From: Pseudomonadota bacterium
GTDB lineage: Bacteria > Pseudomonadota > Alphaproteobacteria > UBA11222
Assembly: GCA_049323975.1 (NCBI GenBank)
Contig: JBMOMY010000036.1
Location: 1-34,321, forward strand
Reading direction: 5' to 3'
DNA: 34,321 nt
Shown here piece by piece: positions 5,144 through 34,321 of this stretch (positions are counted from its first letter, which is position 1; each line of letters opens with the position of its first letter). Below the pieces are notes generated by a model, which worked only from the letters and a program-made list of their open reading frames with translations, ran no database searches and was not told the DNA's origin. Position numbers and translations under genes: made by a program.

Positions 5144-5566
5144 CTACGGATGCAGCACGACCTGCGTCTGGGTGATCTGGGCCACATGCTTGCCATCCTC
5201 GCGCCGGATATTCGTCTGCCAGACCTGGGTGCGGCGGCCCAGATGCAGGGGCGCGCATTCGCCAATGATCCGGGTTCCCTCCAGCGCGGCGGCGAAAAAA
5301 TTGGTCTTCGATTCAAGCGTGGTCGTGCCCGCCCCCTGCGGCAGGTTCAACGACGTGCCATAGGCCCCCAGCGTATCGGCAAAGGCCATCAGGGCGCCCC
5401 CATGCATGATGCCCGGCATGGTGCACAGCTCCCGCGTGACGGTCAGTTCCGCCCGGATCAGGGAAGGAGAGGCCGCCAGAAACACCATCCCAAGCGTTGC
5501 GGGAAACAGCCCCTCGGTGCTGGCCTGCAATTCGGCAAGGGAAGGCTGGGGCGCAGGCGTGGTCAT
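5144..5566 (-). CDS. PaaI family hotdog thioesterase
   Basis: Start MTTPAP at 5566 with RBS AAGGAGG; motifs MHGGALMAFADTLG, TTLESKTNF, HLGRRTQVW. Confidence 0.9.
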   Translation of the reverse strand: MTTPAPQPSLAELQASTEGLFPATLGMVFLAASPSLIRAELTVTRELCTMPGIMHGGALMAFADTLGAYGTSLNLPQGAGTTTLESKTNFFAAALEGTRIIGECAPLHLGRRTQVWQTNIRREDGKHVAQITQTQVVLHP

Positions 5567-5648
5567 GAAGTGCCTCCTTAATCTGGCGTGCGATTCCGCC
5601 CCGATTATGGCAGAAACCCGATGCGCGGCACAGCGGCCTTGCGGACAA

Positions 5649-6224
5649 TCACCCCGCCTTTCCGGACAGTCTGATTTTACGGGTCTTACCAACGGTATCG
5701 GTAATTTCCGGTAATCGTTCCGGCGTTTCAATACGGCAGAGCTTTAGATAAAGCTTCTTCGCCCCTTCAAGACGGTTTTCGCCCGCCTTGACAGGTTTCC
5801 GCCTGGCGGTTTCTTTCCACGGATTCGGGATTCCTTCCCTGGCGAGAAATGCGGCCGTGGCCGCAAGTTCCAGTTCTATAGGGTCCGCACCCGCCGCTGT
5901 ATCCGTAAACTCCTGCTTCTCTGAACAGCCTTCAACAGTGAAGATGGAATAGAACCCCCCCCAGTCTGTTGGAAGCTCCTTTTCTTCGAGTAAATCAAGC
6001 AAGCCAGCATTACGCGCCGCATCCGCCAGATCCTCACTATATGGCCCATAATGATGATAATCGAATTTGAATCCACTGCCCAGACCGGCCAATTCACGCA
6101 AATAAGCGACTTTTTGAAGACGAGTCCGCCCGACAATCCTGCCGCCCGCCGCGCGTATGATCTCAACAACCCTATCCACGTCCCGCTTTGCTACGTTTCG
6201 CTTTCTTTTTACCCCCTGCGACAT
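5649..6224 (-). CDS. YwgA-like / SocA(Panacea)-fold-like protein
   Basis: GRTRLQKVAYL...FDYHHYGPYSEDL...ELELAATAAFL. The LQKxxY / YGPYS signature is shared by YwgA, SocA/DUF4065 and the DarG C-terminal region. GGAG RBS present; overlaps the HD gene end by 53 bp. Confidence 0.75.
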   Translation of the reverse strand: MSQGVKRKRNVAKRDVDRVVEIIRAAGGRIVGRTRLQKVAYLRELAGLGSGFKFDYHHYGPYSEDLADAARNAGLLDLLEEKELPTDWGGFYSIFTVEGCSEKQEFTDTAAGADPIELELAATAAFLAREGIPNPWKETARRKPVKAGENRLEGAKKLYLKLCRIETPERLPEITDTVGKTRKIRLSGKAG

Positions 6225-7665
6225 TACTTATCTCCTTTTCTACCTCCTGCTCGATGAAGCTTTTCGCCTCTGTATCGCTCTCTGAATAGTAAATCCTAAA
6301 CAGCTTGAAGGGCTCAATCGCCGCGACCACCTTTGACCTTTCGCCAAGGTCAACGAGATCGCCATTTGTGGTTTTGATTCTTATCTGATTCAATGGCCCT
6401 TTTGATTCCTCAAATCGTTTATACGGTACACGATTCGCCTGATCAACGAAGATGCGGGGAACCCTGTCATTCTTGTCATGATTCCACTGCTTAACCCTCT
6501 CGTTGACTCTTGCACAGGCCTTATCGACGGCGCTGTCTTTTCCCTTTTCCTTTTCTTTTTCCTTTTCTTTTTCCTTTTCTTTTTCTTCGTCTTTTTCTTC
6601 GTCTTTGCCTTGGCCGCGAATGAACTGGTCCCTGATATCAATGCATTTGAGTAATTTTCTGTCCCGCAGACGAATGGCAAAATCTGTAATCAGGGGATCG
6701 CTGGATTCCGCCATCATGGGCAAGCTGCCCCAGATGACGGCGTCGTCCAGTTGAAGGAAGTATTCAATGTTATCTGGTTCTTGGGCAAATTTAATTAAAG
6801 GATGCCGGGGATCAAGTCCCGTTACGACAGAGCTTGAATCTTGTGTCTTAGATATGATTTGGACAAGCAGTTCGGTTAGAATGATTTCGGCACTTCGTGT
6901 AGCCTTGTGAAAATAAACGGTCGGATATAACTGAAAGAGGCCCAATACATAGGCTTCGGCAGCGTAAATCGCCTTTGGGCCAAGCACGAGGGTTTCAATC
7001 TGTCCCGCAGATACATTGTCAACGCTATAAGGAATGCTTCCGACTTCAAGGTTGGCGATCAGCCATTCGAAATCGATGGCGCTGTGCTGAGTGCCGGTCA
7101 TCAATCGATCCCGCTGCATATAATCGAGCCGGTCGGCGTCGAATTGACTGGAGACGACCGCATTATAAATATTACTGGGCACATCGCTGCTAATGACATC
7201 CGCCACATCATTGGCAAAACCACTGCCTAAATTTTTTTTCAAATCATTACTGACCTCACTATCGCGAATTAAAAGATCACTGACATGCTCATGCCTGGCC
7301 ATTTTCAGATCGAGACGCCGGCCCACTTCTTCAAAGGCATGGCTGAATGGGCCATGACCAATATCGTGAACCAGGGCCGCTGCAAGTGCGGTACGCGATT
7401 TAGTCACCTTAAATTTTTTATCAAGGTGTCTTTCAATAACGGTCATCAGTTTCCGGGCGGTGTGAAACACGCCAATACTGTGCGCGAACCGGGAGTGAGC
7501 AGCCCCTGGGTAAACTAATTCTGAAAGCCCAAGCTGTTTAATCCGCCGCAGACGCTGAAACGGCCGTGTCTGGATGACGCGCCATAACTCATCCTCAAAG
7601 TCATCGGCCTTGAATTCGATAAGGTTATGAATCGGATCACGTATGCGTGGCGGTTTATATTCCAT
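6172..7665 (-). CDS. HD-domain phosphohydrolase, dNTP triphosphohydrolase-like (YwfO/EF1143/SAMHD1 group)
   Basis: IRDPIH, FQRLRRIKQLG, HSRFAHSIGV, AALVHDIGHGPFSHAFE, SSQFDADRLDYMQRD, VYFHK. Confidence 0.9.
   Translation of the reverse strand: MEYKPPRIRDPIHNLIEFKADDFEDELWRVIQTRPFQRLRRIKQLGLSELVYPGAAHSRFAHSIGVFHTARKLMTVIERHLDKKFKVTKSRTALAAALVHDIGHGPFSHAFEEVGRRLDLKMARHEHVSDLLIRDSEVSNDLKKNLGSGFANDVADVISSDVPSNIYNAVVSSQFDADRLDYMQRDRLMTGTQHSAIDFEWLIANLEVGSIPYSVDNVSAGQIETLVLGPKAIYAAEAYVLGLFQLYPTVYFHKATRSAEIILTELLVQIISKTQDSSSVVTGLDPRHPLIKFAQEPDNIEYFLQLDDAVIWGSLPMMAESSDPLITDFAIRLRDRKLLKCIDIRDQFIRGQGKDEEKDEEKEKEKEKEKEKEKGKDSAVDKACARVNERVKQWNHDKNDRVPRIFVDQANRVPYKRFEESKGPLNQIRIKTTNGDLVDLGERSKVVAAIEPFKLFRIYYSESDTEAKSFIEQEVEKEISNVAGGKKKAKRSKAGRG
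6535..6606. repeat. In-frame microsatellite inside the HD gene, encoding KDEEKDEEKEKEKEKEKEKEKGKD
   Basis: On the + strand: (ttttccttttct)x3 at 6545-6580, then (ttttcttcgtct)x2. Confidence 0.9.
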
Positions 7666-7728
7666 ATAAAGTTCATATTTTGTTCTTTTTGGCTTGTCAA
7701 ACGATTATTTGCCTTGCGTTATAACCCC

Positions 7729-9732
7729 TCACGCCGCCTTGTCGCAGCCCTCGTCCACCAGTTGCACGATGTCCGCCATGATGGCGTTGAGCTGATAGTC
7801 CTTCGGCGTATAGACGCGGGCGACGCCGGCATGGCGCAGGCGGTCCGCGTCCTCGGGCGGGATGATGCCGCCGATGACCACCGGAATATCGCCGATGCCC
7901 GCCGCCCGCATGCGCGCCAGCACATCGAGGGCGAGCGGCACATGGCTGCCGGAAAGGATGGAGAGGCCCACCACATGCACGCCTTCCTCCAGCGCGGCGT
8001 TGACGATCTGCGCCGTGGTCAGGCGGATGCCTTCATAGACCACTTCCATGCCCGCGTCGCGGGCGCGCACGGCGATCTGTTCCGCGCCGTTGGAATGGCC
8101 GTCCAGCCCTGGCTTGCCCACCAGGATTTTCAGCCGCCGCCCGAGCTTTGCGGAGACATGGCCGACAGCGCGGCGCACCTCATCCAGATTGCCGCCGCCC
8201 CCGGGCGCCGCACGGCCGACGCCGGTGGGCGCGCGGTATTCGCCGAAGATTTCGCGCAGCGCCGCCCCCCATTCGCCGGTGGTGACGCCCGCCTTTGCGG
8301 CCGCGATCGAGGGCGGCATGATATTGACCCCGGATTTCGCCGCCTGACGCAGGTTTTCCAGCGCCGCCGCCGCAGCCTTTTCATCGCGCGCGGCGCGCCA
8401 GGCCTTGAGGCGTTCGACCGCCTCGGCCTCCACGGCTTCGTCCACCGTCATGATGCCCCCATCCCCGCCTTGGGCAAGTGGCGAGGGTTCGGTCTCGGTG
8501 AATTTGTTCACCCCCACCACGATATGCGCCCCCGCCTCGATGGCGGCGAGGCGCGCAGTGTTGGATTCCACCAGTTTCTGTTTCATGTAACTGGATTCCA
8601 CCGCCGCCACGCCGCCGCCCATGGCGTCGATGCGGGCCAGTTCCGCCAGCGCCTCGGCTTTCAGTTCCGCAACTTTCGCCGCGATCACATGGCTGCCGTC
8701 GAAAATATCGCCATATTCCAGCAGGTCGGTCTCATAGGCGACGATCTGCTGCAGGCGCAGGGACCATTGCTGATCCCAGGGGCGGGGAAGGCCCAGCGCC
8801 TCGTTCCACGCAGGCAACTGCACAGCGCGGGCGCGGGCGTCCTTGGAGAGCACCACCCCGAGCATTTCCAGCAATATTCTGTAGACGTTGTTTTCCGGCT
8901 GCGGCTCCGTCAGGCCGAGAGAGTTGACCTGCACCCCATAGCGGAAGCGGCGCAGTTTCGCATCCTGCACGCCGTAACGGGTGCGGGTGATCTCATCCCA
9001 TAATTCGCCGAAGGCGCGCATCTTGCACATTTCGGTGATGAAGCGCACCCCGGCGTTGACGAAGAAGCTGATGCGCCCGACGACATCGGGAAAATCCTGT
9101 TCCGGCACCTGGCCGCCCGCCTTCACCGCGTCCAGAATGGCGATGGCGTTGGCCAGCGCGAAGGCAAGCTCCTGTACGGGGGTCGCGCCCGCTTCCTGCA
9201 GATGATAGGAACACACATTGACAGGGTTCCATTTCGGAAGCTCGCGATAGGTATAGGCGATCATGTCCGAGGTCAGGCGCAGGCTGACGTCGGGCGGGAA
9301 GATATAGGTGCCGCGCGACAGATATTCCTTGATCAGATCGTTCTGCGTGGTGCCGGCAAGGGAGGCGCGCGCCGCCCCCTGTTCCTCCGCCGCGGCGATG
9401 TAAAGCGCCAGCAGCCAGGGGGCGGTTGCGTTGATCGTCATGGACGTATTCATACGCGCAAGCGGAATGCCGTCGAACAGGGTGCGCATGTCGCCCAGAT
9501 GCGCCACCGGCACTCCCACTTTGCCCACTTCGCCCCGGGAAAGCGGATGGTCCGCGTCATAGCCGGTCTGGGTCGGCAGGTCGAACGCCACCGACAGGCC
9601 GGTCTGGCCCTTGGCCAGATTGCTGCGGTAAAGCGCATTGGAGGCTTGGGCGGTGGAGTGGCCCGCATACGTGCGTAAAATCCAAGGAGCGTCTCTTTCC
9701 GGCGCGACGCCCGGCTGCCTGGTTTGGGTCAT
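7729..9732 (-). CDS. ecm: Ethylmalonyl-CoA mutase (MeaA), B12-dependent
   Basis: PWILRTYAGHSTA, SVAFDLPTQTGY, B12-binding KPGLDGHSNGAEQIA; divergent from ccr. Confidence 0.95.
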   Translation of the reverse strand: MTQTRQPGVAPERDAPWILRTYAGHSTAQASNALYRSNLAKGQTGLSVAFDLPTQTGYDADHPLSRGEVGKVGVPVAHLGDMRTLFDGIPLARMNTSMTINATAPWLLALYIAAAEEQGAARASLAGTTQNDLIKEYLSRGTYIFPPDVSLRLTSDMIAYTYRELPKWNPVNVCSYHLQEAGATPVQELAFALANAIAILDAVKAGGQVPEQDFPDVVGRISFFVNAGVRFITEMCKMRAFGELWDEITRTRYGVQDAKLRRFRYGVQVNSLGLTEPQPENNVYRILLEMLGVVLSKDARARAVQLPAWNEALGLPRPWDQQWSLRLQQIVAYETDLLEYGDIFDGSHVIAAKVAELKAEALAELARIDAMGGGVAAVESSYMKQKLVESNTARLAAIEAGAHIVVGVNKFTETEPSPLAQGGDGGIMTVDEAVEAEAVERLKAWRAARDEKAAAAALENLRQAAKSGVNIMPPSIAAAKAGVTTGEWGAALREIFGEYRAPTGVGRAAPGGGGNLDEVRRAVGHVSAKLGRRLKILVGKPGLDGHSNGAEQIAVRARDAGMEVVYEGIRLTTAQIVNAALEEGVHVVGLSILSGSHVPLALDVLARMRAAGIGDIPVVIGGIIPPEDADRLRHAGVARVYTPKDYQLNAIMADIVQLVDEGCDKAA

Positions 9733-19709: not shown

Positions 19710-19785
19710 TGGTGCCGCCTGCGTGACTCGAACACGCGACCCCCGCATTACGAATGCGATGCTCTACCGGCTGAGCTAAGGCGGC
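19710..19785 (-). tRNA. tRNA-Thr (anticodon CGT)
   Basis: GCCGCCTTAGCTCAGCCGGTAGAGCA TCGCA TTCGTAA TGCGG GGGTC GCGTGTTCGAGTCACGC AGGCGGC ACCA; 76 nt cloverleaf with encoded CCA. Confidence 0.97.
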
Positions 19786-31638: not shown

Positions 31639-31695
31639 GTTCCCTTCTCAGAGCAGACGTTGTTTCAGGAAATAAGGGATAAAGGGTAAACGGCA

Positions 31696-34131
31696 ATGAA
31701 GCCAAAACTGGTGGTTATCGGCAACGGAATGGCCGGTATGCGAGCGGTCGAGGAACTTCTTGAACGCGCGCCGGACGCCTATGACATTACCGTATTCGGC
31801 GCCGAGCCGAATGTGAATTACAACCGCATCATGCTCTCGCCGCTTCTGGCGGGGGAAAAGAGCTTTGCGGACATCATCATCAACGATCTTTCCTGGTATG
31901 CGGATAACCATATCACGCTGCATCTCGGCGAGAAGATCGAGGCCATCGACTGCGCCGGCAAGAAGGTGGTCACGGCTGGCGGCGCCAAACTTCCCTATGA
32001 CCGGTTGCTGATCGCCACCGGCTCCGACCCGTTCATTCTGCCTATCCCGGGGGCCGGTCTGCCCGGCGTGGTGACCTTCCGTGACAGGGGCGATGTTGAA
32101 CAGATGCTGGAGGCAAGCCGCCGGCATAAACGCGCCGTGGTCATTGGCGGCGGGCTGCTGGGGCTGGAAGCCGCGAACGGGCTTCTGGCGAACGGCATGC
32201 AGGTCACTGTCCTGCATCTGATGCCCAATCTGATGGAGCGTCAGCTCGATGAAGCCGCGGGCTATCTGCTGCAACGCGAACTGGAGGTTCGCGGGATGGA
32301 GATCATCACCCGCGCCAACAGCCGGGAAATCTATGGCGCCGATAAGGCCGAAGGCGTCCTGCTGGATGACGGAAGGCGCATCGACGCCGATCTCGTGGTG
32401 ATGGCGGTAGGCATCAAGCCGAATATCGCCCTGGCGAAGGCTGCGGGGCTGACCTGTGAACGCGGCGTCGTCGTGGATGACCACATGGTTACGTCGGATC
32501 CTTCGATCCTGGCCGTGGGCGAATGCGTGCAGCACAGGGGCGCGGTCTATGGCCTGGTCGCGCCGCTGTTCGATATGGCGAAAGTGGTCGCCGCCCAGCT
32601 TGCCGACGACGCGGCGGCGGCCTATGAGGGTTCGGTCACCAATACGCGGCTGAAAGTAACAGGTATCGATCTGTTTTCCGCAGGCGATTTTTCCGAAGGC
32701 GAAGGCTGCGAGGACATCATCCTGCGCGACGCCAGCCGCGGGGTCTATAAACGCCTGGTGCTGAAAGACAACCGCATCCGCGGCGCCGTGCTGTATGGCG
32801 ATACTGGAGATGGCGGCTGGTATTTCCAGATGCTGCGCGACGGCGTGGATGTTTCCGGCATGCGCGACAGCCTGATCTTCGGACAGGCCTTCGCCGGAGG
32901 TGGCCGGGAAAACCCTAAATCCGCCGTTGCGGCGCTGGCGGATTCTGCGGAAATCTGCGGCTGTAACGGCGTGTGCAAAGGCAGGATCGTAACCGCGATT
33001 TCGGAACACGGTCTTACCAGCGTCGATGAGGTGCGGGCCAAGACCAAGGCGTCGGCTTCTTGCGGCTCCTGCACCGGACTTGTGGAGCAGCTGCTGCAAA
33101 TCACCCTGGGTGACGGTTATCTGGGCGGGCCGGCGGTCAAGTCCGTGTGCAAATGCACGGATCTCTCCCATGACGAAATACGCCGCCTGATCCTGGTCAG
33201 GGAGCTGAAAACCATTCCCGCCGTCATGCAGGAACTGCAATGGAAATCCGCTGATGGTTGCGCCACCTGCCGTCCGGCCCTGAATTATTATCTGCTGTGC
33301 GAATGGCCTGGCGAGTATTGCGATGATTATCAGTCGCGTTTCATCAATGAGCGCGCCCACGCCAATATCCAGAAGGACGGCACCTATTCCGTGGTGCCCC
33401 GCATGTGGGGCGGCCTTACCAACGCCAGGGAACTGCGGGCGATCGCGGATGTGGTGGAGAAATTCGCCATCCCCACGGTGAAGGTGACCGGCGGCCAGAG
33501 ACTGGATCTGCTGGGCGTCCAAAAAGACCAGTTGCCGGAAGTCTGGAAAGACCTGAACGCTGCGGGCCTTGTTTCCGGCCATGCCTATGGCAAGGCGCTG
33601 CGCACGGTGAAAACCTGTGTCGGTTCCGAATGGTGCCGTTTCGGCACCCAGGCTTCCATGGGCATGGGCGTGGAGATCGAAAAAATGACCTGGGGAAGCT
33701 GGACCCCCCACAAGGTGAAAATGGCGGTGTCCGGCTGCCCGCGCAACTGCGCCGAGGCGACGATCAAGGATTTCGGCGTCGTGGCCGTGGATTCCGGCTG
33801 GGAACTCCATGTAGGCGGTAATGGCGGCATCAAGGTCCGCGCCACCGATCTTCTCTGCAAGGTGGAAACCGCGGAGGAGGTGCTGGAATATTGCGGCGCC
33901 TTCATGCAGCTTTACCGCCAGGAAGCCCATTATCTTGAGCGCACCGCGCCCTGGCTGGAGCGCGTGGGTCTTGACCATATCCGGGAAAAAATCGTCGAGG
34001 ACAAGGAGAACCGCGCCAGGCTTCACGCCAGATTTCTGCATTCCCAGAAGTTTGTGCAGAAGGACCCGTGGGCCGAACGCGCCAGCGAAGGCGTGCACGC
34101 CCATGAATATCGCCAGCTTGAAATGGCGTGA
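31696..34131 (+). CDS. nirB: Assimilatory NADH-dependent nitrite reductase, large subunit
   Basis: VIGNGMAG FAD motif, GGGLLGLEAA, BFD-like CGCNGV...CGSC, siroheme/4Fe-4S motifs KTCVGSEWCRFG and VSGCPRNCAE. Confidence 0.97.
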   Translation: MKPKLVVIGNGMAGMRAVEELLERAPDAYDITVFGAEPNVNYNRIMLSPLLAGEKSFADIIINDLSWYADNHITLHLGEKIEAIDCAGKKVVTAGGAKLPYDRLLIATGSDPFILPIPGAGLPGVVTFRDRGDVEQMLEASRRHKRAVVIGGGLLGLEAANGLLANGMQVTVLHLMPNLMERQLDEAAGYLLQRELEVRGMEIITRANSREIYGADKAEGVLLDDGRRIDADLVVMAVGIKPNIALAKAAGLTCERGVVVDDHMVTSDPSILAVGECVQHRGAVYGLVAPLFDMAKVVAAQLADDAAAAYEGSVTNTRLKVTGIDLFSAGDFSEGEGCEDIILRDASRGVYKRLVLKDNRIRGAVLYGDTGDGGWYFQMLRDGVDVSGMRDSLIFGQAFAGGGRENPKSAVAALADSAEICGCNGVCKGRIVTAISEHGLTSVDEVRAKTKASASCGSCTGLVEQLLQITLGDGYLGGPAVKSVCKCTDLSHDEIRRLILVRELKTIPAVMQELQWKSADGCATCRPALNYYLLCEWPGEYCDDYQSRFINERAHANIQKDGTYSVVPRMWGGLTNARELRAIADVVEKFAIPTVKVTGGQRLDLLGVQKDQLPEVWKDLNAAGLVSGHAYGKALRTVKTCVGSEWCRFGTQASMGMGVEIEKMTWGSWTPHKVKMAVSGCPRNCAEATIKDFGVVAVDSGWELHVGGNGGIKVRATDLLCKVETAEEVLEYCGAFMQLYRQEAHYLERTAPWLERVGLDHIREKIVEDKENRARLHARFLHSQKFVQKDPWAERASEGVHAHEYRQLEMA

Positions 34132-34145
34132 CGGGAGATTGTGAG

Positions 34146-34321
34146 ATGGCCGAATGGATTGAAACCGGAAAAGTGACGGATATTCCAAGGCTAGGCGCCC
34201 GGACCGTCCAGGCGGGCGGCCTGCGGATCGCCATTTTTCGCACCGCTAATGACGAAATTTTCGCGCTGGAAGACCGCTGTCCGCACAAGGACGGCCCGCT
34301 TTCCCAGGGCATTGTGCATGG
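34146..34321 (+). CDS. nirD: Nitrite reductase small subunit (Rieske-like), 3' truncated by the window
   Basis: MAEWIETGKVTDIPRLGARTV...IAIFRTANDEIFALEDRCPHKDGPLSQGIVH. Confidence 0.93.
   Translation, partial: MAEWIETGKVTDIPRLGARTVQAGGLRIAIFRTANDEIFALEDRCPHKDGPLSQGIVH

Follow-up and report, generated by a model that had tools for sequence, protein, structure and literature searches.

What might a short, AT-rich pair of overlapping genes do for the bacterium that carries it? The question is raised by positions 5,649 to 7,665 of contig JBMOMY010000036.1 (GenBank assembly GCA_049323975.1), from a Pseudomonadota bacterium of the alphaproteobacterial lineage UBA11222, of which a stretch of 34,321 nucleotides (nt) was analyzed as a whole and is referred to hereafter as the window. 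The pair, which is small (2 kb), encodes an HD-domain protein and a smaller partner protein. An earlier reading of this DNA, made from its letters alone (the sequence-only reading), had taken the pair for a foreign cassette in which the small protein neutralizes a nucleotide hydrolase and releases it on infection; that interpretation as a whole is partly supported by the results described here. The reading that we favor is that the cassette is a mobile, toxin-antitoxin-like nucleotide-depletion module, whose partner protein would neutralize the hydrolase and let it go upon infection, and we regard the case for it as evenly balanced. It builds on homology, on the behavior of the two genes across genomes and on a weakly predicted complex of their products, while the direction of regulation, the trigger and a role of the pair in phage defense are extrapolated from these.

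The HD Protein

The first gene of the pair (6172..7665, minus strand) is an open reading frame (ORF) of 497 amino acids (aa), the presumed effector, or 'toxin', of the cassette. Its product matches the Pfam families HD (3.8e-10) and HD_assoc_2 (4.4e-8), and a sequence search of the PDB retrieved EF1143 of Enterococcus faecalis (2o6i, 3irh and 4lrl; 1.7e-40), followed by 2q14 (3.3e-34), 2hek (1.2e-31), a fungal SAMHD1 (9mr6; 5e-25) and the vertebrate SAMHD1 proteins (about 1e-15 to 1e-20). In the same search, 9p8w, identified in the text of PMC12265719 as a Shewanella defensive dGTPase, appeared at an E-value of 0.0029 only. Models of the Dgt branch scored far under their cut-offs, with 45.9 bits against 152 for TIGR01353 and 23.3 against 400 for NF041026 (the antiphage_dGTPase model of NCBIfam), and the dGTPase models of PADLOC and NCBIfam align just the first ~115 residues of the protein (about 19-117). 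Membership in the Dgt/defensive dGTPase branch was rejected on these grounds and, because of the PDB matches and the sub-cut-off dGTPase models, we place the HD protein in the EF1143/SAMHD1 branch (COG1078; YdhJ in CDD). Among PHROGs, it matches only families of unknown function.

The intact H...HD...D motifs that had been noted before were borne out, as the metal ligands H62, H100, D101 and D176 do not vary across 42 aligned homologues, and neither do R59, H104, H109, H125, D178, R179, D181, Y182, R185 and D186; in the HE dyad H125-E126, the glutamate is conserved in at least 90% of these sequences. In the PDB sequence alignment, the invariant positions fall on catalytic and substrate-binding residues of EF1143, and their equivalents in SAMHD1 are presumably R164, H167, H206, D207, H210, H215, H233/E234 and D311. 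The AlphaFold2 (AF2) model of the protein (predicted local distance difference test, pLDDT, 86.4; predicted template modeling score, pTM, 0.86) was matched by Foldseek to EF1143 (E about 1e-19, template modeling (TM) score 0.67-0.79 over about 480 columns, about 25% identity) and to human SAMHD1 (TM 0.60-0.68, about 20% identity), the whole-length match to deoxynucleoside triphosphate (dNTP) hydrolases taking in the C-terminal lobe. A Lys/Glu-rich stretch (KDEEKDEEKEKEKEKEKEKEKGKD) within the HD protein is absent from its close homologues (about 455-485 aa) and has low pLDDT in the model; it is coded by a 6/12-nt tandem repeat detected by Tandem Repeats Finder (6536..6606, minus strand; about residues 354-377), and probably arose when replication slippage expanded a loop or helix at the surface. 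Altogether, and as the sequence-only reading had proposed in calling it a SAMHD1-like dNTPase homologue, the HD protein is, judged by sequence and fold, a full-length homologue of the EF1143/SAMHD1-type dNTP triphosphohydrolases with all catalytic residues intact. From its family membership it would be expected to act on dNTPs: EF1143 is described in PMC3190883 as hydrolyzing all canonical dNTPs, and enzymes of this type as regulators of the dNTP pool.

The Partner Protein

The second gene (5649..6224, minus strand) is an ORF of 191 aa whose product has a predicted fold like that of the DarG C-terminal domain and of Panacea proteins, and is the presumed neutralizing or regulatory subunit. Its LQKxxY...YGPYS signature, already pointed out in the sequence-only reading, consists of LQKVAY (residues 36-41) and YGPYS (59-63), with Q37, G60, P61 and S63 conserved in at least 90% of 81 homologues. 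Pfam assigned the protein no family even at E<=10, and MctB (Pfam, 0.2) was set aside as noise. The DarG model of PADLOC matches it at 7.9e-7, aligning residues 17-71 with model positions 166-220. Searched against the PDB with phmmer, the partner sequence retrieved nothing at E<=1, and DarG was reached only by a profile of the 81 homologues, which found 7yk3_B, a DarG chain (1.4e-4), aligning the LQK...YGPYSE and LELAATA segments. The AF2 model of the partner (pLDDT 93, pTM 0.86), which has a winged-helix topology in its N-terminal half, had 7yk3_B/D as its sole Foldseek matches at E<=0.001 (E 7.8e-4, probability 1.0, TM 0.46-0.48, 18-19% identity over about 190 columns). As to names, JGI calls many of the homologues 'uncharacterized protein YwgA', one UniRef entry reads 'Antitoxin SocA-like Panacea domain-containing', and in the nearest named ESM Atlas cluster (score 0.92), 13% of the members carry SocA_Panacea, which we take as a lead only. 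By three independent routes of sequence comparison and modeling, the partner is therefore assigned as a relative of the toxin-binding C-terminal domain of DarG, whose fold is shared with the Panacea/SocA antitoxins.

According to PMC13621843, the C-terminal domain of DarG binds and inhibits the DarT toxin, and DUF4065 (Panacea) proteins are homologous to this domain; the same source cites Deep et al. 2023 for an inhibition by DarG that works as single-stranded DNA mimicry. A hint of nucleic-acid mimicry was also sought in the charge of the window's partner and was dropped, its core isoelectric point of 5.6 being unremarkable. The partner had no match in PHROGs, none at E<=0.001 in the BFVD library of viral folds, and no nucleotidyltransferase match in Pfam, NCBIfam or PADLOC. 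Its family comprises 1002 clusters (90% identity) at E<=0.001 among 2301 candidates, and at 50% identity 687 representatives at E<=0.001, 259 at E<=1e-10 and 36 at E<=1e-30. The family is mostly alphaproteobacterial, and it is unannotated in PADLOC and Pfam.

Pairing of the Two Genes and Prediction of a Complex

To follow the pair across genomes, one genome per species was searched for 185,579 species with two partner peptide patterns, which gave 313 stretches and 232 confirmed relatives. The best relative of the window's partner is 59% identical, and hence this collection holds no close relative of the cassette. The best 80 of the 232 relatives were analyzed as loci (designated by L and a number, as in L012); having been found with an alignment of the partner's closer relatives, they are biased to its close family (47-59% identity). 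Their hosts are 61 Alphaproteobacteria, five Terriglobia, four Myxococcota, three unclassified Pseudomonadota and one each of Fidelibacterota, Binatota, Gammaproteobacteria, Betaproteobacteria and Flavobacteriia, with two loci unplaced.

In 75 of the 80 loci, the gene immediately preceding that of the partner, on the same strand, encodes an HD homologue. Among the five without an HD match, three have at most 90 nt of upstream DNA (L028, L040 and L069) and one has 362 nt (L057); L012, with 5.7 kb, is the sole locus with ample upstream DNA yet no HD gene. In 52 loci, the HD frame extends as far as the partner and a candidate start for the partner is present; in 50 of them this start lies before the HD ORF has ended, and nine of the 50 overlaps are of the 4-nt type. 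Moreover, the pairwise identities of HD and partner proteins co-vary (Spearman 0.62; 45 sequence pairs, taken from 44 loci and the window, giving 990 comparisons). When proteins of 348-2000 aa were searched with the partner profile, exactly one relative was found, the 653-aa HD-partner fusion P0389 (HD at 5-468, partner at 491-652; 48-49% identical to the window proteins), which may be a real natural fusion or a frameshift artefact. Overall, the HD gene and the partner gene are an obligate pair.

In the window, the two ORFs overlap by 53 nt in different frames (6172..6224, minus strand), an arrangement that implies translational coupling as far as the sequence tells. An AAGGAG Shine-Dalgarno motif stands 7 nt ahead of the partner ATG at 6224. 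An alternative GTG start at 6179, with an 8-nt overlap with the HD stop codon (GTGGATAG), would give a product of 176 aa; the ESM Atlas record of the partner begins at the GTG-6179 residue, whereas the better Shine-Dalgarno motif precedes the ATG at 6224.

The HD frame is broken, truncated or interrupted beside a whole partner in 13 of the 75 loci; for instance, the HD protein lacks residues 82-281 in L029 and its first 122 residues in L008. A broken HD gene next to a whole partner gene fits toxin decay, and we give this tally little weight because the loci were ascertained through the partner and many are metagenome bins. Two loci are described for their own sake. In L021 (6761-10062), the HD gene carries an insertion of ~850 nt that separates residue 158 from residue 163, and it has a gene for a HigB-like toxin just upstream. 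In L012 (4145-7292), from Polyangiaceae, a partner homologue of 54% identity is preceded by two overlapping ORFs of 261 aa that match neither the HD profile nor Pfam, and is followed by a gene matching PDC-S34 of PADLOC (9e-105); this locus may hold a different 'toxin' or an orphan partner.

The structure of the complex was predicted from the two window proteins with alignments. The interface score ipSAE (interaction prediction score from aligned errors) had a median of 0.56 (runs 0.56, 0.51 and 0.80), which is weak support, and the best of three controls had 0.00. At least 50% of the contacts are common to the runs, and the partner pLDDT is at least 77. A score carried by memory of the DarT-DarG complex seems unlikely, because the toxin in that solved complex is unrelated. 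Taken with the one natural fusion, this weak prediction suggests that the partner may bind the HD protein.

Foreign Origin and Mobility

The sequence-only reading had described an overlapping, AT-richer gene pair between ecm and a thioesterase gene, and the coordinates, the overlap and the composition were all confirmed: the guanine-plus-cytosine (GC) content of the pair is 48.8%, against 60.5% in its +-5 kb flanks. In 500-nt windows, GC runs at 0.456-0.49 over 6001-7750 and at 0.61-0.70 on both sides, and the pair has the lowest GC for its size in the entire 34 kb, as 0 of 142 other windows are as low. The same holds elsewhere: of 73 loci, 72 have a pair with less GC than the +-5 kb around it, the median difference being -10.2 points. 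Of 64 loci, 53 reach their GC minimum, among windows of that size, at the pair, and 55 have at most 5% of other windows as low.

A test across the related loci for vertical, syntenic inheritance, which the sequence-only reading had named as contrary to its proposal, left the proposal of a foreign cassette standing. With three neighbors per side, called by a crude gene finder of our own, 361 of 421 neighbor proteins have no relative beside any other copy, no conserved third gene emerged among the 421, and shared synteny is confined to two couples of loci (L051/L068 and L006/L031). In a quick maximum-likelihood tree of 45 HD proteins, the host-order label changes 18 times (minimum 10; mean of shuffled labels 21.4; one of 200 shuffles as low). 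Its starred branches force at least five changes for Hyphomicrobiales and at least four for Rhodospirillales, and Acidobacteriota, a Burkholderiaceae bin (Burkholderiales) and a Haliangium bin (Myxococcota) are nested among Alphaproteobacteria. The cassette is thus foreign, as had been claimed from the window, and horizontally mobile.

Genomic Neighborhood

Most neighbors of the pair are unrelated housekeeping or metabolic genes, such as those for SmpB, RNase PH, EF-Tu, LepA, UvrA, UvrB, CTP synthase, DnaE, GrpE, Lon, RuvX and aminoacyl-tRNA synthetases. Pfam was run on 141 of the 144 immediate neighbors and the remaining three, long proteins, were scanned with Pfam separately; the same 141 were scanned with PADLOC (E<=1e-10), where matches of UvrA, ABC transporters, Lon and sigma-70 were discounted as generic. 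Strong, specific defense neighbors were found in nine of the 80 loci, a raw count, so that the enrichment is suggestive only. In Roseospira goensis (L006, 4415-14074), the pair lies between a DISARM-type methylase of the Eco57I/MmeI type and DrmA, and in a gammaproteobacterial bin (L031, 4554-11741) between an Eco57I/MmeI-type methylase and a helix-turn-helix plus IrrE gene like RmrA/CapP, both methylases measuring 1300-1370 aa; these two pairs sit inside DISARM-like loci. The other defense neighbors are MkoC of Mokosh (L033), a type I restriction-modification methylase (L051 and L068), PDC-S34, PDC-M57B and PDC-S08 (L012, L053 and L080, respectively) and, with a weaker match, PDC-M30A (L066). 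Five more loci (L004, L005, L021, L067 and L079) adjoin toxin-antitoxin or transposase genes. The window copy has no defense neighbor. As a lone small cassette between core genes, the pair behaves like toxin-antitoxin modules more than like classical defense islands.

Two neighbors with a link to nucleotides were also observed: a 5'-nucleotidase gene adjoins the pair in L080 (6057-7070) and is the PADLOC candidate PDC-S08 mentioned above (4e-114), and a cytidine/dCMP-type deaminase of 159 aa is encoded next to the pair in L024 (635-1114).

Proposed Mechanism and Alternatives

In the mechanism that we favor, the first gene would supply a SAMHD1/EF1143-type HD enzyme that hydrolyzes dNTPs to deoxynucleosides and triphosphate, and the second a small protein with the fold by which DarG and Panacea antitoxins bind and silence toxins. 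The two would be made together, because the second gene is translated from an overlapping frame, and the partner would bind the dNTPase directly and keep it inactive in the style of a type II toxin-antitoxin system. Loss, titration or degradation of the partner, as might happen in a phage infection, would free the HD enzyme, which would then empty the dNTP pool and bring DNA replication of both phage and cell to a halt. Taken one step further, the HD protein could be the first bacterial enzyme of the SAMHD1 branch proper to be gated by another protein, with a DarG-C-terminal-domain/Panacea-type off-switch that doubles as an infection sensor and with a phage product, or phage-induced turnover, freeing a pan-dNTP-depleting enzyme; we put this extension forward tentatively, and consider it somewhat unlikely.

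Several points weigh against the favored mechanism. To our knowledge, EF1143-type enzymes are not known to be toxic and are usually read as housekeepers of the dNTP pool, and the enzyme-first gene order is less usual for type II toxin-antitoxin pairs. The identification of the partner as SocA/Panacea/DarG-like stood for the C-terminal domain of DarG, reached by sequence, profile and fold, and failed for Pfam SocA_Panacea (PF13274, DUF4065), which 0 of 81 family members match at E<=0.1; no other Pfam family was convincing among these 81 diverse relatives, and the antitoxin_DarG model of NCBIfam (NF048014) gives the window's partner 20.9 bits against a cut-off of 250 (model positions 173-227). 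The structure prediction that had been suggested for the complex did set the pair (0.56) apart from its controls (0.00). In calibration, the ipSAE mark is reached by 116 of 157 solved complexes and two of 215 mismatched pairs, and scores at or below 0.60 are shared by just 18 of the 157 solved complexes and by both passing mismatches, which makes the pass a weak one. The broken HD frames may be assembly errors. A tblastn search with the partner had no match among 72,556 plasmid and 50,697 phage records, which hence point to no vector that could have carried the cassette. Finally, the association with recognized defense genes is modest (the nine loci described above), and in about 66 of the 80 loci, as in the window, the genes around the pair are ordinary metabolic or housekeeping ones.

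The same body of evidence has to be read against other explanations. One is that the partner activates rather than inhibits, assembling, targeting or switching on the dNTPase, e.g., upon recognizing a phage product, in what would be a sensor-effector defense system. Obligate pairing and the evidence for binding are silent on the direction of regulation, and a stable fusion such as P0389 fits a regulatory subunit better than a labile antitoxin. Enzymes of the SAMHD1 family, moreover, need oligomerization and allosteric activation, the active form of SAMHD1 being given as the tetramer in PMC3624423, and EF1143 was crystallized as an activator-substrate complex according to PMC3190883. Nevertheless, the partner's relatives of known function, the DarG C-terminal domain and the Panacea antitoxins, are reported in PMC13621843 and PMC8832971 as inhibitors, and the partner is kept, in the manner of an orphan antitoxin, where the HD gene is missing or broken (L029, L008, L021 and L012), and we therefore see an activating partner as rather unlikely. 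It is less probable still that the HD enzyme simply keeps the dNTP pool in order with the help of an accessory subunit, in the way of ywfO-ywgA of Bacillus, and that the pair has no role in conflict. The description of EF1143-type enzymes as pool regulators (PMC3190883), the mostly housekeeping neighbors and the JGI name 'YwgA' of the partner's relatives would all agree with it, and YwgA-type proteins would then be explained as dNTPase subunits. Such a function is hard to reconcile with a family of just 232 relatives in 185,579 species genomes, with the low GC of the pair relative to its flanks (72 of 73 loci), with a near absence of synteny and an HD tree incongruent with taxonomy, and with copies that sit within DISARM and restriction-modification loci or have decayed.

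Two further explanations concern one protein each. The HD enzyme might act on something other than dNTPs (NTPs, an alarmone or signaling nucleotide, or nucleic-acid ends), in which case the module would work otherwise than by dNTP depletion. The HD superfamily catalyzes many reactions (as outlined in PMC8177086), identity to EF1143 is about 25% in the fold alignment, and YwfO has been the subject of speculation, in PMC4993169, as a pyrophosphohydrolase whose substrates would be modified nucleotides or mRNA with its 5' triphosphate. We judge this very unlikely in view of the full SAMHD1-type catalytic set, invariant beyond the HD motif and inclusive of the H125-E126 dyad (E126 conserved in at least 90%), and of a whole-length fold that matches dNTPases through the C-terminal lobe. 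The partner, in turn, might mainly be a winged-helix DNA-binding autoregulator of the operon, with no direct inhibition of the enzyme. Its winged-helix N-terminal half would suit that role, as would weak Foldseek matches to PadR/VanR regulators (E 0.016-0.06, TM 0.27-0.30) and one Atlas cluster with both SocA_Panacea (21%) and PadR (15%). These matches are far weaker than the one to DarG, however, and the weakly supported complex prediction puts the partner on the HD protein, to which it is also joined in the natural fusion; we find an autoregulator alone highly improbable, and note that autoregulation and inhibition are compatible with each other. Neutralization of a dNTPase by its partner accordingly remains the reading that we favor, at the even balance given at the outset.

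Boundaries of the Cassette and Other Features of the Window

Upstream, the low-GC insert is bounded by a spacer of 63 nt (7666..7728, minus strand) that runs from the stop codon of the ecm-like gene to the HD start codon and coincides with the jump in GC; downstream, by the spacer at 5567..5648 (minus strand), from the partner stop codon to the probable start codon of the thioesterase gene. The ecm-like mutase gene (7729..9732, minus strand) encodes MM_CoA_mutase and B12-binding domains and is plausibly ecm, because it lies next to a divergent ccr-like reductase gene. The thioesterase gene (5144..5731, minus strand) encodes a hotdog thioesterase of the 4HBT type, and its true start codon is probably, from the sequence context, an ATG near 5566 preceded by AAGGAGG. 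No convincing direct or inverted flanking repeats or att-like sites were found around the insert, no integrase marks the insertion, and the sole tRNA gene of the window is 12 kb off. A consensus promoter and terminator scan of 5400-7900 gave counts not above those of shuffled sequence and no site in the upstream spacer (7666-7728), where a putative TTGACA-17 nt-TATGAA pair was spotted by eye.

Three other regions of the window deserve mention. Two plus-strand ORFs in its first 1500 nt (154-714 and 701-1222) overlap by 14 nt within another low-GC patch (0.48-0.52); the first has no family and the second has a PIN domain (Pfam, 2.8e-7), and they may be a VapBC-like toxin-antitoxin pair. Between 16000 and 20000, 4 kb of lower GC (0.50-0.54) hold the 3' part of a large catalase gene, together with genes of the DUF1989 and YqcI/YcgG families, and end at tRNA-Thr(CGT) (19710-19785), which may make this stretch a small genomic island at a tRNA gene. 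At 31648-34188, a minus-strand ORF of 846 aa without a Pfam match at 1e-5 is mirrored by a plus-strand ORF of 811 aa.

Significance and Comparison with Known Systems

Nucleotide depletion is an antiviral strategy common to humans (SAMHD1) and bacteria, and how self-harm is avoided is an open problem. If the favored mechanism holds, the idea of Panacea and the DarG C-terminal domain as a 'universal antitoxin' would extend to a nucleotide-pool enzyme, and a sizeable family unannotated in Pfam and PADLOC would gain a name and a testable function. Under the tentative extension to a protein-gated enzyme with an infection sensor, the family (687 clusters at 50% identity) would be an unrecognized abortive-infection system. 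It would also closely parallel, in bacteria, the restriction exerted by SAMHD1, and its regulation would follow a logic distinct from that of Clover and of the solitary dGTPases.

The closest solved relatives of the HD protein, EF1143 and eukaryotic SAMHD1, share its whole-length fold and its catalytic residues. Both work alone, under the control of nucleotides bound at allosteric sites, and we know of no dedicated protein partner for either. A pairing like that of the window is presumably present in Bacillus subtilis, where a COG1078 HD gene (ywfO) and the small ywgA gene are reportedly adjacent. In a full-text search of the literature, we found no experimental study of a dNTPase paired with a YwgA- or Panacea-type protein and no functional study of YwgA, and YwfO appeared only in the speculation of PMC4993169.

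The defensive dGTPases that consist of a single gene (Tal et al.; dGTPase of PADLOC; 9P8W), like Dgt of E. coli, are also HD-superfamily triphosphohydrolases that protect by depleting a dNTP. They differ in belonging to the Dgt/COG0232 branch and in acting alone, whereas the HD enzyme of the window is of the EF1143/SAMHD1 branch and comes with a partner; moreover, according to their authors, these dGTPases are not directly alignable to SAMHD1, while the HD protein aligns with it directly. With DarTG, a toxin-antitoxin and phage-defense system, the cassette shares the fold and a detectable sequence similarity of the DarG C-terminal domain (PDB 7YK3), seen in the partner. Unlike DarTG, the pair has neither a macrodomain nor a DarT ADP-ribosyltransferase, its neighboring enzyme being an HD hydrolase, and no DNA ADP-ribosylation would be expected from its sequence.

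The architecture itself has been catalogued before. In Dataset S1 of the Panacea survey by Kurata et al. (PNAS 2022; PMC8832971), which relied on the Pfam DUF4065 model at its gathering cut-off, cluster pT33/T34 joins an 'HD domain-containing protein' (YdhJ in CDD) to a Panacea protein in the order T|A, as predicted toxin and antitoxin. Its five T34 rows are all from Clostridia (Ammonifex, Desulfofundulus and three Caldicellulosiruptor), are marked 'notest', and have gene spacings of -4, 0, -17, -17 and +23 nt. What the two have in common is a module of two genes, the first for an HD/YdhJ (COG1078) enzyme and the second for a small protein of the Panacea type. The difference is that the T34 hosts are thermophilic Clostridia whose partners pass the DUF4065 gathering score, while the family of the window is mainly alphaproteobacterial and fell outside that survey because the DUF4065 model matches 0 of its 81 members. 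The HD(YdhJ)+Panacea combination is thus already on record in that dataset, yet unvalidated, and the cassette described here is a new, unannotated version of it.

The nearest validated logic is that of Clover, an anti-phage system made of the dNTPase CloA and the nucleotidyltransferase CloB, which is the subject of a 2025 preprint by Yamaguchi et al. (PMC12265719). CloA was not among the PDB matches of the HD protein at E<=0.01, a search in which the presence of CloA in the PDB copy was unchecked. In Clover, as described in that preprint, a dNTPase effector is curbed by what its neighboring gene produces, so that self-toxicity is limited, and the cassette of the window would work on the same principle. 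CloB, however, is presented there as a Pol-beta-type enzyme that makes an inhibitory nucleotide, p3diT, whereas the partner in the window resembles a protein-binding antitoxin domain. Beside the two bacterial arrangements already known, the solitary dGTPases, whose control is unknown, and Clover with its inhibitory nucleotide, a SAMHD1-branch dNTPase held by a dedicated antitoxin-fold protein would, if the favored reading is true, be a third solution.

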